DNA from: Eledone cirrhosa
Lineage: Eukaryota
NCBI GenBank assembly: GCA_964016885.1
Contig: OZ024754.1
Coordinates: 37,572,001-37,636,000, forward strand
Direction: 5' to 3'
Length of the DNA stretch: 64,000 nt
Part shown: piece by piece, positions 10,811 to 46,340 of the stretch
How the letters are laid out: every line of letters begins with the position of its first letter
Numbering within the stretch: the stretch's first letter is position 1
Notes under the pieces: generated by a model
The model's database searches: none
What the model was told of the DNA's origin: nothing
Seen by the model: the letters and a program-made list of their open reading frames with translations, nothing else
Position numbers and translations under genes: made by a program

Positions 10811-10845
<35 letters not shown>

Positions 10846-11141
10846 TAGATAAATAACTATATATATATATATATATATTCATAAATAAATAACTATATAT
10901 ATATAAGTATGCATGTATACGTACATACATATATGTATACAGACGTACAGTAGCATGCACATATATATATATATATACATATATACATACATATGCATAC
11001 AGGTACACATACATATATGCACGTATCAGTTTAGCGGCGCTAACGTCGCTTTGTTCGTTTGTAAACAAACTGAACAGCCTGAATTTATGCCATACGGTGT
11101 TAAGGCAACCACGTCACCTTTTTGTTCAACACTGACACAGG

Positions 11142-11186
11142 AACGATGTACTAGTTTCAAGCTTGTTAGCTATCATCAGCACCGTT
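11142..11186 (-). ncRNA. Type I hammerhead ribozyme (inverted unit)
   Basis: Reverse complement reads AACGGTG CTGATGA tAGCTaacaAGCTt GAAA ctag TA CATCGTT. Confidence 0.85.
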
Positions 11187-11807
11187 TACCCATCTGCCAG
11201 ATAGTTGAACGTTCGAAAGTATATACTTTCCTTATGAAAATTAACGGCTGAGCAGCCTAATTTGCATATTGAGTGAGTTAAATCGGTCAGGCATACCGAA
11301 AACGATAAATTGAAACAAAATGAAAACGAAATTTCATTTCTCACTCTTAGTATGGCACTTACTTAAATGTAAGTATGCATGTATACGTACATACATATAT
11401 GTATACAGACGTACAGTAGCATGCACATATATATATATATATACATATATACATACATATGCATTACAAACGAACAAAGCGACGTTAGCGCCGCTAAACT
11501 GATACGTGCATATATGTATGTGTACCTGTATGCATATGTATGTATATATGTATATATATATATATATGTGCATGCTACTGTACGTCTGTATACATATATG
11601 TATGTACGTATACATGCATACTTACATTTAAGTAAGTGCCATACTAAGAGTGAGAAATGAAATTTCGTTTTCATTTTGTTTCAATTTATCGTTTTCGGTA
11701 TGCCTGACCGATTTAACTCACTCAATATGCAAATTAGGCTGCTCAGCCGTTAATTTTCATAAGGAAAGTATATACTTTCGAACGTTCAACTATCTGGCAG
11801 ATGGGTA

Positions 11808-11852
11808 AACGGTGCTGATGATAGCTAACAAGTTTGAAACTAGTACATCGTT
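11808..11852 (+). ncRNA. Type I hammerhead ribozyme, predicted cleavage after GUA at 11845
   Basis: Stem I aacggtg/catcgtt (7 bp), core CTGATGA...GAAA, palindromic stem III ACTAGT. This copy has a C>T change in stem II that keeps a G-U pair. Confidence 0.85.
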
Positions 11853-12273
11853 CCTGTGTCAGTGTTGAACAAAAAGGTGACGTGGTTGCCTTAACACCGT
11901 ATGGCATAAATTCAGGCTGTTCAGTTTGTTTACAAACGAACAAAGCGACGTTAGCGCCGCTAAACTGATACGTGCATATATGTATGTGTACCTGTATGCA
12001 TATGTATGTATATATGTATATATATATATATATGTGCATGCTACTGTACGTCTGTATACATATATGTATGTACGTATACATGCATACTTACATTTAAGTA
12101 AGTGCCATACTAAGAGTGAGAAATGAAATTTCGTTTTCATTTTGTTTCAATTTATCGTTTTCGGTATGCCTGACCGATTTAACTCACTCAATATGCAAAT
12201 TAGGCTGCTCAGCCGTTAATTTTCATAAGGAAAGTATATACTTTCGAACGTTCAACTATCTGGCAGATGGGTA

Positions 12274-12318
12274 AACGGTGCTGATGATAGCTAACAAGCT
12301 TGAAACTAGTACATCGTT
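12274..12318 (+). ncRNA. Type I hammerhead ribozyme, predicted cleavage after 12311
   Basis: Same motif 466 nt downstream. Confidence 0.85.
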
Positions 12319-12739
12319 CCTGTGTCAGTGTTGAACAAAAAGGTGACGTGGTTGCCTTAACACCGTATGGCATAAATTCAGGCTGTTCAGTTTGTTTACA
12401 AACGAACAAAGCGACGTTAGCGCCGCTAAACTGATACGTGCATATATGTATGTGTACCTGTATGCATATGTATGTATATATGTATATATATATATATATG
12501 TGCATGCTACTGTACGTCTGTATACATATATGTATGTACGTATACATGCATACTTACATTTAAGTAAGTGCCATACTAAGAGTGAGAAATGAAATTTCGT
12601 TTTCATTTTGTTTCAATTTATCGTTTTCGGTATGCCTGACCGATTTAACTCACTCAATATGCAAATTAGGCTGCTCAGCCGTTAATTTTCATAAGGAAAG
12701 TATATACTTTCGAACGTTCAACTATCTGGCAGATGGGTA

Positions 12740-12784
12740 AACGGTGCTGATGATAGCTAACAAGCTTGAAACTAGTACATCGTT
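12740..12784 (+). ncRNA. Type I hammerhead ribozyme, predicted cleavage after 12777
   Basis: Same motif a further 466 nt downstream. Confidence 0.85.
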
Positions 12785-13132
12785 CCTGTGTCAGTGTTGA
12801 ACAAAAAGGTGACGTGGTTGCCTTAACACCGTATGGCATAAATTCAGGCTGTTCAGTTTGTTTACAAACGAACAAAGCGACATTAGCGCCGCTAAACTGA
12901 TACGTGCATATATGTATGTGTACCTGTATGCATATGTATGTATATATGTATATATATATATATATGTGCATGCTACTGTACGTCTGTATACATATATGTA
13001 TGTACGTATACATGCATACTTACATTTAAGTAAGTGCCATACTAAGAGTGAGAAATGAAATTTCGTTTTCATTTTGTTTCAATTTATATATATATATATA
13101 TATATATACATACATAAATAAATAACTATATA

Positions 13133-13167
<35 letters not shown>

Positions 13168-13175
13168 ATTATATG

Positions 13176-13259
<84 letters not shown>

Positions 13260-13329
13260 CAAATAAATAATTATATATATATATATATATATACATATAT
13301 ATATCTGTGTGCGTATGTGTGTGTGTATA

Positions 13330-13386
<57 letters not shown>

Positions 13387-13779
13387 TTATGGAAAAGTTG
13401 ATTAGAAGCCAAATTATAGTAGAAATATTTGGCACCAGAAGCATATGACTATTTCTTTAGTATGGAAATCTAAAAATCTAAAACCCTTTGTAAAATATTT
13501 GATGAATGCGATAAATATGAATTATTTCTCATATCTATCGATCAATGACCAACTTCTGCAGTTTCTCTGCTTTAAACACTTAAATTATGAAACAAATCAA
13601 TGAATATATATAATATCATTTCATAGAATCTTCTTTTTAATTCTTTTTTATTGTTTTATATATTCTTTTTGTCTTTATATATATATATATATATTCACAC
13701 ACATGCATACACACATGCATACATATATGTATATATATGTGTGTGTGTGTGTATGTATGTATATGTGTGTGTGTGTATG

Positions 13780-28674: not shown

Positions 28675-29118
28675 ATCACAGAAAAAAGAGAATCAGTGTT
28701 GCGACGAAAGGAATTTATTGGACATATTACAATTGTTTCTCGGGCGACACGATCGATGTGTTGATCAAACCTGACTCTGAAATCGTGCGGTCCTCGGATA
28801 TGTATCGATTCTACGAAGCAGATTCGATCACCACACCGATCGTGCCTCGAGCTGGTCGCCCGAGAAACACTTGTAAAATGTCCAATAAATTCCTTTCGTC
28901 GCAACACTGATTCTCTTTTTTCTGTGATATCATACTCTGCTCTACGAGGGCATCGAGTGCTCATATGGCCTACCGCACACGGACGCTTTAAGCATCCAAC
29001 ACCAATTATATATATATATATACACACATATATATATTAAAGCGTCCGTATGCGGTAGGCCGTATGAGCACTCGATGCCCTCGTAGAGCAGAGTATGATA
29101 TCACAGAAAAAAGAGAAT
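28675..29118. mobile_element. Doubly inverted Penelope-type terminal repeat fragments, same family as 23929-24075
   Basis: 28675-28750 inverted against 28855-28930, and 28912-28991 inverted against 29038-29118. Carries GAAAcacttgTA / GAAAcaattgTA half-hammerheads. Confidence 0.7.
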
Positions 29119-29642
29119 TTTATCGACCCCGTAAGGATGAAAGGCAAAGTCAATCTCGGCGGGATTTGAACTCAGATCGTAAAGGGACGTAACTATGCTG
29201 GAAAGGATGGCGTCCGACCCTCTACCGATACTGCCAATCCACCGCCCTTTACTCCAACATAATTGTTTCTTCTATTGGCACAAGGCCAGCAATTACCCAG
29301 TACATTACTGGTACTTTATTTTATCGACCCCGTAAGGATGAAAGGCAAAGTCAACCTCGGCGGGATTTGAACTCAGATCGTAAAGGGACGTAACTATGCT
29401 GGAAAGCATGGCGTCCGACCCTCTACCGATACTGCCAATCCACCGTCCTTTACTCCAACATAATTGTTTCTTCTATTGGCACAAGGCCAGCAATTACCCA
29501 GTACATTACTGGTACTTTATTTTATCGACCCCGTAAGGATGAGAAGGCAAAGTCAACCTCGGCGGGATTTGAACTCAGAATGGCAAGGGCCGTAACTCTA
29601 TGCGTCAAAGCATGGTGTCCGACCCTCTACCGATACGGCCAA
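29118..29642 (-). repeat. Tandem array of SINE A, 201-bp period, ~2.6 copies
   Basis: tatcgacccc at 29121, 29322 and 29523. Confidence 0.9.
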
Positions 29643-29906
29643 TAACATAATGATATCAATTTAGAAAGAACAGCAAGACAAAGAGAGAATATTTGCCCGA
29701 GAATGTTAATATCTAGTTCACAAGACACGATCATCAAGAAAGTCCAGTGCGAGGACAAGGTTATCATCATAGATAGTCAATTCCTCTGCCCCCTAGATTT
29801 CGCATCCTAATAACTTCACAGAGCGCAATAGTTGGAGGAGATGCTAAATGCCATCAACACTTGGGAAAACAAAGGTCATAAATTGGCAGCATTACTAACA
29901 TAGCAT

Positions 29907-30878
29907 TATGTATATTATTATTATTAATGATATTATTATTACTGGTTTTATAATAGATAAGGCGGTGGATTGGCAGTATTGGTAGAGAGTCGGACGCCAT
30001 GCTTTCCAGCATAGTTACGTCCCTTTACGATCTGAGTTCAAATCCCGCCGAGGTTGACTTTGCCTTTCATCCTTACGGGGTCGATAAAATAAAGTACCAG
30101 TAATGTACTGGGTAATTGCTGGCCTTGTGCCGAAAGTAGAAACAATTATGTATATTATTATTATTAATGATATTATTATTACTGGTTTTATAATAGATAA
30201 GGCGGTGGATTGGCAGTATCGGCAGAGAGTCGGACGCCATGCTTTCCAGCATAGTTACGTCCCTTTACGATCTGAGTTCAAATCCCGCCGAGGTTGACTT
30301 TGCCTTTCATCCTTACGGGGGTCGATAAAATAAAGTACCAGTAATGTACTGGGTAATTGCTGGCCTTGTGCCGAAAGTAGAAACAATTATGTATATTATT
30401 ATTATTAATGATATTATTATTACTGGTTTTATAATAGATAAGGCGGTGGATTGGCAGTATCGGCAGAGAGTCGGACGCCATGCTTTCCAGCATAGTTACG
30501 TCCCTTTACGATCTGAGTTCAAATCCCGCCGAGGTTGACTTTGCCTTTCATCCTTACGGGGGTCGATAAAATAAAGTACCAGTAATGTACTGGGTAATTG
30601 CTGGCCTTGTGCCGAAAGTAGAAACAATTATGTATATTATTATTATTAATGATATTATTATTACTGGTTTTATAATAGATAAGGCGGTGGATTGGCAGTA
30701 TCGGCAGAGAGTCGGACGCCATGCTTTCCAGCATAGTTACGTCCCTTTACGATCTGAGTTCAAATCCCGCCGAGGTTGACTTTGCCTTTCATCCTTACGG
30801 GGGTCGATAAAATAAAGTACCAGTAATGCACTGTGTAATAGCTGGCCTTGTGCCTAAAGTAGAAACAATTATGTATAT
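29907..30878 (+). repeat. Tandem array of SINE A plus flank, 240-241-bp period, 4 copies
   Basis: ggcggtggattgg at 29961, 30201, 30442 and 30683. Confidence 0.95.
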
Positions 30879-41689: not shown

Positions 41690-43450
41690 TCATCATTTTA
41701 CGTCCGCTTTTCCCTGCTTGCAAGGGTGGGACGGGTCCTATTCAGCACAGCATCTCTCCACTTGTCACGGTCCTTCTTCCTCTCCTCCGTGAGTTTCAGC
41801 GATCTGCTGTCAGCTCTCACCACCTCCGCCCATGTTTTTTGTGGTCTTCCTCTACTGCGTCTTCTTTCTACTGGGATTCTTAGCACTTCTTTATCCAGCG
41901 GTCATCCTCCATGCGCCTCACATGTCCATACCATGTCAGTCTTCTCTCCTGCATACTACAACTTATGCCCCTTATACCCAGTTTCTCTCTCAACTTGACA
42001 TTGCACATCCAACGGAGCATGCTTTCTTCAATTCTCTCCAGCCGTCGCATATCCTCTGCAGTTGCTGCCCATGTCTCACTACCATGCAGCATCACGCATC
42101 TCACACAAGCACCATATAACCGGCCTTTGGTACGCAGGGATAAACCCTTCTCTGTCAACAGAGGAAGCAGCTCCCTAAACTTCTTCCAACCCGTCCTTAT
42201 TCTAGATACTATGGCCTCGGAACACCCCCTCCCATGCATGCTAATCTGATCACCTAGGTACTGGAAGTTATCATCCACTTTTATAGAACCCACCTGCATT
42301 GGGAAAATGTGTCTATCACTGCAATTACTACTTCCGACTTTCCCTGTACATCTACTGCATACGTAGTTTTCCTTACCTGTTAGTTTGCCTGCTATCCCAC
42401 TACATTTCTTGTGTACCCAAGATCTGTATTGCGTACAATTTATGGAATTTATGCCAGTTCCTTTTCTACATATTGAATATGGCCATTTCTCTGATGGAAT
42501 CAGTGTATCGTCCTCTCTTCTACTTATCAACACCTTTGTCTTAGCTAGGTTCACTCTCAGTTCTCTTGATTCCAACTGCTGTTTCCATAGCCAGAATTTA
42601 TTCTCTAGATCCTCTACTGATTCTGTTGTAAGAACCAGATCATCAGCTTAGAGAAGTTCCCATGGGCATCCAGTCTTAAACCCCTCTGTTATTACTTGGA
42701 GGACTATAATGAACAAGAGCGGGTTGAGGACCGAACCCTGATGTACACCTACTTGTATCTGGAATTCCTCACTAAACTCCATTACTACTCTAACTTTACT
42801 GACAGCACCTCTGTACATAGCTTTCACTGTCCTCACAAGCCATTCCTCAACACCTAGTTCCCTTAGGGACCACCAGATAACAGATCGGGGTAGCCTATCA
42901 AAGGCCTTCTCTAGGTCAACAAAAGCTAAGTATAGTGGCTTATTCTTCTCTAAGAACCTCTCTTGTAGTTGTCTCACTAAGAAGAGGGCATCTGTTGTAC
43001 TTTTCCGAGGAACAAATCCAAACTGCATCTCATCTAATTCGACCCTTTCTCTAATCAGTTGCGCTAATATTCTCTCTGCCACTTTCATAACCTGATCCAT
43101 CAGTTTTATACCCCTATAACTGCTCCTCTCCAGAGCATCCCCTTTACCTTTGTAGCAATTTCTGAGAATACTGCTGCGCCAGTCTTTGTGTATGACACCA
43201 TCATATATAGCTTGATTAATGATGCGTGCAACTAGTTTAGTGCCTAATTCTGATGTCTTCAGCATCTCAGCAACTATCCCCGACGGTCCAGCAGTCTTAC
43301 CATTCTTCATTTCCTTAATTGCCTCTTGTACCCTATATTCGTCAATCTCAATAGCTGGTCCCTCTGTCGGGTCTACTGGGGGTAATTTCTCTCTGTCCCA
43401 TTCGTTCTCCACATTCATCAGTCTCTCATAATGACATTTTCAGGCCTCCT
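41690..43450 (-). mobile_element. 5'-truncated RTE-clade LINE; RT ORF broken by a stop at the YADD tyrosine; PHD-like finger inside ORF2
   Basis: ORFs 42648..43418 and 41880..42575 are in the same frame (KGKGDA..YRGIKL, QFGF, FVDLEKAFD, GVHQGSVL, ELL*ADDL); (GAT) tail. Confidence 0.93.
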
Positions 43451-45778: not shown

Positions 45779-45843
<65 letters not shown>

Positions 45844-45971
45844 ATGTAGGAGGTGAGTTTTATTGTAGTACAATAAAGCAATGCAGATATCGGATAAGAA
45901 GCACTCTACAATTTGTAGGACTGGAGAATACATAATATATAAGATCAAAAGATGGTTAAAGGAGTTCCATG

Positions 45972-46042
45972 TATTTTATTATGCGCATTTCAAAAACAAA
46001 TATCATCATGCAATAAAATTTGTGTTTTCATCAGATAAAATA
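45972..46042 (-). ncRNA. Type I hammerhead, left arm of fold-back 45935-46280
   Basis: Reverse complement reads tattttat CTGATGA aaac...ttttt GAAA tgcgca TA ataaaata. Confidence 0.8.
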
Positions 46043-46172
46043 GGAAGACATGATATGAAGGTTAAAAACACTTGTGGATAGTGCAGTTTATTTAAAACTG
46101 TTTATTTAAAACATATGTTGATTTAAAACTGCACTATCCACAAGTGTTTTTAACCTTCATATCATGTCTTCC

Positions 46173-46243
46173 TATTTTATCTGATGAAAACACAAATGTT
46201 ATTGCATTATGATATTTGTTTTTGAAATGCGCATAATAAAATA
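46173..46243 (+). ncRNA. Type I hammerhead, right arm of fold-back 45935-46280
   Basis: tattttat CTGATGA aaacacaaatgttat...tgatatttgttttt GAAA tgcgca TA ataaaata, with palindromic ATGCGCAT. Confidence 0.8.
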
Positions 46244-46284
46244 CATGGAACTCATTTAACCATCTTTTGATCTTATATATATAT

Positions 46285-46340
<56 letters not shown>

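Follow-up and report, generated by a model that had tools for sequence, protein, structure and literature searches.

The array between positions 10904 and 13087 of a 64,000-nucleotide stretch of Eledone cirrhosa DNA (contig OZ024754.1, positions 37,572,001 to 37,636,000; hereafter the window) raises the question of what kind of element a tandem repeat with one hammerhead ribozyme motif per unit represents, and which machinery placed it there. The first-pass annotation, made from the letters alone, had read it as a cephalopod retrozyme copied by rolling-circle reverse transcription with the enzyme of a Penelope-like element (PLE). Rolling-circle copying and the PLE link have already been proposed (PMC7229834, PMC4209133, bioRxiv 10.64898/2026.07.22.740005), whereas the insertion of animal retrozymes and the origin of tandem and inverted PLE copies with a tail on one end are stated to be open (PMC7229834, PMC8557442). 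Statements on published systems refer herein to the consulted parts of the cited papers.

The array consists of two divergent arms built from the same unit. The direct arm (11464–13087, + strand) comprises 3.48 units with a period of 466 bp, and the inverted arm (10904–11464, − strand) comprises 561 bp or 1.2 units, whose sequence matches the direct units; the earlier estimate of about 3.5 and 1.2 copies is thus borne out. The direct units differ at exactly the two positions that had been spotted, 11833 (C>T) and 12882 (G>A). The arms meet head-to-head at 11464 with an overlap of 1 nt and without a hairpin. With unit positions m1–m466 numbered from the first base 3′ of the predicted cut, the inner break lies at position 151 in the inverted arm and at position 85 in the direct arm. 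The outer (3′) end of the inverted arm, termed E1, lies at position 245 and carries no tail, and that of the direct arm, termed E2, at position 310; the 65 nt between E1 and E2 (13023–13087, + strand) form a tail on one end of the insertion only. (TA)n borders the array on both sides, as the annotation had stated, with TA-rich target flanks on the left (10813–10903) and right (13088–13387). A target-site duplication is not callable in the window because the flank motif itself is repeated locally. The cut-to-cut monomer (12312–12777, + strand) measures 466 nt between predicted cut sites, and the unit has a G+C content of 36%. It contains an internal (TA/TG/CA) microsatellite (12428–12560, + strand) that is predicted to form a long hairpin and is the source of unit-length variation among insertions. 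The three unit reading frames scanned have no Pfam match, neither the unit nor the window array contains an ORF with reverse transcriptase (RT) and GIY-YIG endonuclease (EN) between terminal repeats, as expected of an autonomous PLE, and no host gene was found among 128 reading frames of the 64-kb window.

Four hammerheads match a descriptor of type I topology with a 7-bp helix I. Three lie on the + strand (11808–11852, 12274–12318, and 12740–12784), with predicted cuts after 11845, 12311, and 12777, exactly where the annotation had placed them, and one lies in the inverted arm (11142–11186, − strand) with a predicted cut after 11149. In the first of them, 11833 C>T turns a helix II G-C pair into G.U. 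The description of each unit as carrying a full type I hammerhead holds for the topology, with two qualifications: at the base of helix II, a U.U mismatch takes the place of the usual pair, and helix III is a stem of 2 bp only (A-U and C-G around UA), within the palindrome ACUAGU that had been described. Because of these two features, the monomer ribozyme is predicted to be weak. The Rfam search suggested as a check yields no match at the gathering score; Hammerhead_HH9 reaches 18.5 bits at an E-value of 0.34, where the cut-off is 52, and matches to miRNA families, far under the cut-off, are microsatellite artefacts.

The exact 41-nt hammerhead pattern recurs 10,032 times in the 3.0-Gb genome, whereas the reversed control gives 0 matches; hence, the recurrence is not due to chance. 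A variant hammerhead, first met by BLAST in unrelated loci, adds 9,371 exact matches genome-wide and marks an older subfamily that is ~80% identical and has units of 420–440 bp. The dispersed copies that the annotation had expected are therefore found, and the genome-wide family supports its assignment to the retrozymes. A 31-nt marker of the window's own subfamily, the youngest one, has 4,480 exact matches; all these copy counts stem from exact-pattern searches of the whole genome. Both hammerhead counts would imply at least roughly 9 Mb, or about 0.3% of the assembly. Among the sampled insertions—which are not random, being the first places of each search, mostly on contig 1, with many loci picked for an intact or changed motif—25 of 199 reach an identity of 98% or more with the unit of the window. 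On a tree, the unit by itself falls into at least five nested haplotype groups, and in the youngest subfamily arrays reach 19 units in one insertion, head to tail and without an ORF. The words of the unit are 88–100% present in six sequencing runs from four organisms. The host genome also encodes a multi-unit molluscan hemocyanin, whose best PDB match is a squid entry, ahead of gastropod ones; this makes the cephalopod assignment of the annotation likely. With a short non-coding tandem unit, at least two consecutive type I hammerheads, dispersed multicopy occurrence, and a G+C content below 45%, the repeat is a young high-copy non-coding hammerhead family of the animal non-LTR retrozyme class, and the window array is a recent insertion of this family.

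Compared with the non-LTR retrozymes of coral, mussel, and axolotl, the family shows the same non-coding tandem units with one type I hammerhead each (PMC7229834; bioRxiv 10.64898/2026.07.22.740005), and animal members of the class likewise have a G+C content below 45%, thousands of copies, and a weak palindromic helix III (PMC7229834). It differs by its larger units, of 466 and up to ~570 nt as opposed to 170–400 nt in invertebrate retrozymes, and by the internal microsatellite hairpin of the 466-nt unit. Expression and circles have been shown for animal non-LTR retrozymes, whereas the present family was studied in genome sequence. The PLE link of animal retrozymes was drawn from shared hammerheads, co-occurrence, and similarity to pLTRs, not from insertion ends; no pLTR sequence link is found in the loci compared here. 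The literature search returned no description of a cephalopod retrozyme, while supplements, Repbase, or Dfam may already list the family, and the word "ribozyme" is absent from the Octopus vulgaris repeat paper (PMC13282606). The class as such is known already; what the family offers is unusually clear footprints of mechanism.

Two further arrangements were met in the survey. Satellite-like arrays of at least 30–50 kb of the 466-bp family unit lie at G000:C3:12.27–12.32 Mb (L270) and C2:60.57–60.60 Mb (L256–L265); they are mosaics of variants, and many of their units have a dead cut-site base. A second, unrelated hammerhead family with 310-bp units and the helix III palindrome ACGCGT occurs at L034:6650–9000 (G000:C1 ~5.544–5.546 Mb), where seven direct copies and one inverted copy sit in (TA)n and adjoin an insertion of the 466-bp family.

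The insertion ends follow a regular pattern. Ends were assigned by an anchor method in 190 hammerhead-bearing clusters, with both outer ends detected in 65, one in 94, and none in 31. The outer (3′) ends are fixed, E1 at m245–251 and E2 at ~m310, ~65 nt apart, and 63 of the 65 two-ended clusters combine one E1 with one E2. The two exceptions are L214 (E1/E1) and one compound locus (E2/E2); L042 may be a further E1/E1 case after internal deletion. The window insertion obeys this rule, with E1 at 10904 and E2 at 13087, and (TA)4 is reached by 206 of 224 outer ends. A description of the rule was not found in the literature search. The inner breaks, on the other hand, are scattered: in 18 junctions, chosen by eye with microsatellite noise left out, the arms break at unrelated phases and are joined with 0–5 nt of overlap or 3–7 added bases. 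A fold-back origin of the inversion is not supported in these 18 young junctions, while equal-phase palindromic junctions are present at L037 and L056. The inverted terminal copy of the annotation is thus real as an inversion, and it proves to be a second arm that ends at a fixed point of its own rather than a fold-back. The objection that the inversion might be an assembly chimera is countered by dozens of other loci with the same architecture and different junctions, which make a chimera unlikely, the window junction itself being judged from the assembly sequence.

Two divergent arms with fixed ends are the Penelope "tail" signature. Neptune-type EN-bearing PLEs show the same partial tandems with an adjacent inverted, 5′-truncated copy, the same one-end tail, microsatellite targets, and a hammerhead near the 3′ end (PMC8557442, PMC11167929, PMC3846280). 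The 466-bp family shares with PLEs the two fixed 3′ ends (with an optional tail), the variable 5′ truncation, the adjacent inverted copy, and the preference for (TA)n targets seen in the autonomous PLEs of this genome. It is set apart from endonuclease-bearing PLEs by the lack of an ORF and by a tail of ~65 nt, as opposed to 30–40 nt in known EN-bearing elements, although a local PLE family, F1, has about 66 nt. For the PLEs of Adineta, head-to-head inversions were explained by self-priming on an antisense template (PMC3846280); unlike in that model, most junctions here are not palindromic, and it is the ribozyme strand that shows an A>G bias. The same kind of non-coding, multicopy, head-to-tail insertion, made by PLE machinery, is formed by non-autonomous members of the Chlamys group, among them MRC1 of Chlamydomonas (PMC8557442). 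However, Chlamys elements are generally described as being without canonical hammerheads (PMC8557442), and their non-autonomous members generally resemble the autonomous family at the 3′ end, whereas no such likeness is found here.

Candidate enzymes are encoded in the same genome. A first look gives 10,597 GIY-YIG candidates, 150 of which were scored; four long ORFs combine RT with a C-terminal GIY-YIG domain, three of them with a C-x4-C-x2-C linker, the type given for Neptune elements (PMC8557442). The relatives named in the PLE protein search are bivalve. The terminal repeats of these RT+GIY-YIG elements contain type I hammerheads, several with a palindromic helix III. Two ORF-bearing families end at two distances past their own hammerhead, ~76 or 142 nt in F1 and ~122 or 165 nt in F2, nearly all ends lying in (TA)n; by our reading of the end listing, the F1 arms are E1/E2 at four loci and E1/E1 at one. 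The (TA)n targets, the E1/E2 ends, and the same end pattern in RT+GIY-YIG elements support the PLE-type mobilization that the annotation had proposed. That the insertion is made by PLE machinery is the best-supported step and appears highly probable, and Neptune-type Penelope elements are the likely source of this machinery, acting in trans. F1 is only a candidate for the partner, since it matches the unit in tail length (~66 nt) and not in terminal-repeat sequence; a 12-nt pyrimidine word is common to both at a different offset. At L122, a related unit follows a PLE ORF; it was considered as a partner link and rejected, being a separate insertion beyond the end of that PLE. As a side observation, two autonomous families downstream of GIY-YIG ORFs (L111, L112, L081, L105) have a hammerhead in which U3-A8 replaces C3-G8, a core covariation described for Schistosoma PLEs (PMC4209133).

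The units could also be pLTR fragments, the terminal repeats of some autonomous PLE that escaped the search, so that no independent retrozyme exists. A PLE with a homologous terminal repeat is found neither in 50 GIY-YIG loci nor in the variant-hammerhead list, which is a small sample, as the 50 loci stand against thousands of GIY-YIG candidates; in addition, Xenopus retrozymes resemble pLTRs (bioRxiv 10.64898/2026.07.22.740005). Yet the matches to the unit in these 50 loci are separate retrozyme copies only, protein matches do not adjoin the unit in 80 loci compared with PLE proteins, and such fragments would not be expected to follow one another head to tail without an ORF, up to 19 per insertion, or to form five or more nested haplotype groups by themselves. 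This origin is therefore very improbable. Spread as a DNA-level satellite, through unequal crossing-over or circular DNA, with inversions arising by fold-back and the hammerhead as a relic, is less probable still. Long mosaic local arrays, such as those on C3 and C2, speak for it, but it predicts neither fixed one-sided ends, the E1/E2 rule, and (TA)n targeting nor unequal inner breaks and compensatory RNA pairs. For dispersal, it is largely refuted; DNA-level expansion may explain the later growth of a few arrays.

For a PLE-made, non-autonomous insertion, the question becomes which template was copied. Among 61 full units, the mean number of core-variant differences is 1.1 inside an array as opposed to 15.1 across arrays, and the two arms of one insertion differ by a mean of 2.0 as opposed to 12.2 between insertions (19 insertions), the own partner arm being nearest or tied in 15 of 19. 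Each insertion also has a characteristic unit length, which its two arms share: all 6 intervals of L300 measure 476, 6 of 7 in L299 measure 468, and most of those in L266 measure 494–495. A rare variant is present in all covered units of 37 of 141 multi-unit insertions. Copying begins at two internal points, ~245 and ~310 nt downstream of the cut, and neither starts nor stops at the cut itself; breaks fall exactly at the cut site in 2 of 30 loci and at a control position in 5 of 30. A linear cut monomer as the usual template is rejected because its 5′ ends would pile up at the cut.

A Neptune-type RT/EN acting in trans on a one-unit circular RNA is, in our judgement, the probable explanation of the insertion, the template itself probably being a circle. 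In tandem transcripts, the hammerheads would pair via the palindromic helix III and cleave as dimers, after which the cut monomer would be circularized by a host ligase. The Neptune-type enzyme would nick both (TA)n strands, and each nick would serve as a primer for internal reverse transcription on the ribozyme-strand RNA, with E1 as the start of one cDNA and E2 as that of the other. Both cDNAs would pass the sealed cut site and go round the same unit a variable number of times; their head-to-head joining would rely on short stretches of microhomology or on the addition of a few bases. A-to-I edits appear to have been present in a minority of templates before copying. For an anole PLE in vitro, two RT start sites define the tail, and both target strands are cleaved and extended (PMC11167929). 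Insertion of that element is independent of ribozyme cleavage (PMC11167929), and of 9 Xenopus retrozyme dimers a single one underwent cleavage in vitro (bioRxiv 10.64898/2026.07.22.740005), both of which count against this model.

The main competing account is a non-autonomous PLE copied from uncut linear multimers or via template jumps, without a circle, the hammerhead serving another step. It accords with the anole element, which uses unprocessed RNA in vitro and whose hammerhead mutants still insert (PMC11167929), and it would leave the same ends without an accumulation of breaks at the cut. Internally mixed arrays fit a multimeric template as well, namely, L079/L080, with a recurring variant in 3 of 17 units, and L034, with alternating unit types; a dead cut-site base in all units of some insertions (L214, L227/L228) points the same way. 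Uncut multimers are harder to reconcile with lengths and variants that are peculiar to one insertion and recur in each of its units on either arm. The A>G cluster that L214 carries identically in its two arms requires that a single unit was copied twice, and in the youngest subfamily, where an array can reach 19 units, a length-restoring step would be needed. On balance, we consider this account, including template jumping on one uncut unit, unlikely. The mixed arrays, together with the long mosaic satellites, imply an additional contribution from multimeric templates or from later expansion at the DNA level. The rolling-circle proposal of the annotation thus stands in its PLE part, whereas repeated copying of one unit is supported indirectly, by arm haplotypes and lengths. 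With the 63 of 65 clusters that follow the E1/E2 rule, the family provides thousands of natural products of PLE-type insertion, and because the 466-nt substrate and candidate enzymes occur in one genome, the rolling-circle and double-priming models can be tested directly.

Folding predictions bear on the cleavage step of the circular-template model. The circular monomer has a predicted energy of −152 kcal/mol (z −7.7 vs dinucleotide shuffles, n = 60), and the microsatellite-free core a z of −4.7 (60 shuffles). The active helix I register has a predicted probability of ~0.2 in the monomer circle, and the helix III palindrome is able to pair between units. Axolotl HHR_Amex2 has the same U.U at the base of helix II and cuts better as a dimer (PMC7229834); the predicted weak monomer register and inter-unit helix III would fit dimer-dependent cleavage, as for the axolotl motifs. 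A predicted long-range helix (11898–12111, + strand) joins unit positions 53–61 with 258–266, and of 138 insertions, 47 have U-A and 82 have C-G at its pair 57–262, an alternation that is a compensatory change. The helix I pair 433–3 is G.U (93), U.G (26), or A-U (12) among 131 insertions with recurring hammerhead haplotypes, out of 187. Between the subfamilies, 0 of 12 catalytic positions differ, as opposed to 60 of 295 columns overall; taken alone, this conservation is weak (P ~0.07), and the choice of many loci for an intact hammerhead bears on the figure.

The strand and the unit that were copied may also be recorded in A>G changes. At L214, which was reached via a search for a changed cut-site base, A>G changes at m460, 466, 27, 51, and 61 are common to both arms, lie on both sides of the cut, and destroy the hammerhead core. 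A>G-rich segments number 2 of 607 and T>C-rich segments 0 of 607. A24>G arose eight times in a tree of 120 insertion rows, each time common to the units of the insertion, and is present in 11 units of L266, whereas the control T21 in the same helix gives one two-unit T>C cluster among 76 matches. Hand counts on contigs 1–5 yield 34 loci with A24>G vs 15 with T21>C, the transversion loci numbering 27 and 23; the difference has p 0.03 in a binomial and 0.15 in a Fisher test, and position 24 and other sites were noticed post hoc. Tree-wide, A>G exceeds T>C (34 vs 19, p 0.03), and G>A also exceeds C>T; purine and pyrimidine transitions stand at 72:46, as opposed to 261:266 among single-unit mutations (p 0.025). 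Private changes shared within an insertion comprise 10 A>G vs 6 T>C among 55, which is not significant. Judged from such substitution patterns, A-to-I editing of the template RNA is probable at L214, and the overall pattern is suggestive of edited templates in a minority of insertions. General ADAR hyper-editing of templates is not supported, with few A>G changes in the youngest insertions. In the sampled part of L270, 12 units share A>G changes at positions 30 and 64.

If the A>G changes are editing, the ribozyme strand is the template and one physical unit was copied into both arms. Repeats of the cephalopod lineage are heavily edited (PMC9068888), and RNA edits would become heritable in a heavily editing lineage. 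That the insertions record double priming on one ribozyme-made RNA circle, with ADAR edits written into the DNA of every unit, is a tentative proposal that we rate somewhat below an even chance; were it true, host RNA editing would feed the heritable evolution of the element. No description of edited retrozyme templates was found in the literature search.

An octamer motif lies ~75 nt upstream of the hammerhead in every unit (12191–12198 in the window), is kept in both subfamilies, and is a possible promoter element. Newt satellite 2 has an snRNA-type promoter, with an octamer and a proximal element as in host snRNA genes. The full octamer is absent from three host U2 upstream regions, two of which have no non-repetitive match longer than 10 nt with the unit; hence, an snRNA-type promoter is not supported by this comparison. 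About 40 U2 snRNA genes are arranged in tandem with a spacing of 2.2 kb at G000:C3:307.35–307.45 Mb.

Other repeats share the window with the array. Two short divergent arms in (TA)n at 45840–46290, each with a hammerhead-like motif with a long helix II and a palindromic helix III, are probably a truncated terminal-repeat insertion of another Penelope family. Broken reverse-transcriptase frames on the − strand at 41883–43439 (Pfam RVT_1, E 4e-17) likely represent a decayed LINE. Tandem arrays of 201 and 241 bp at 29117–30878 contain what we take to be a SINE-like 3′ segment.
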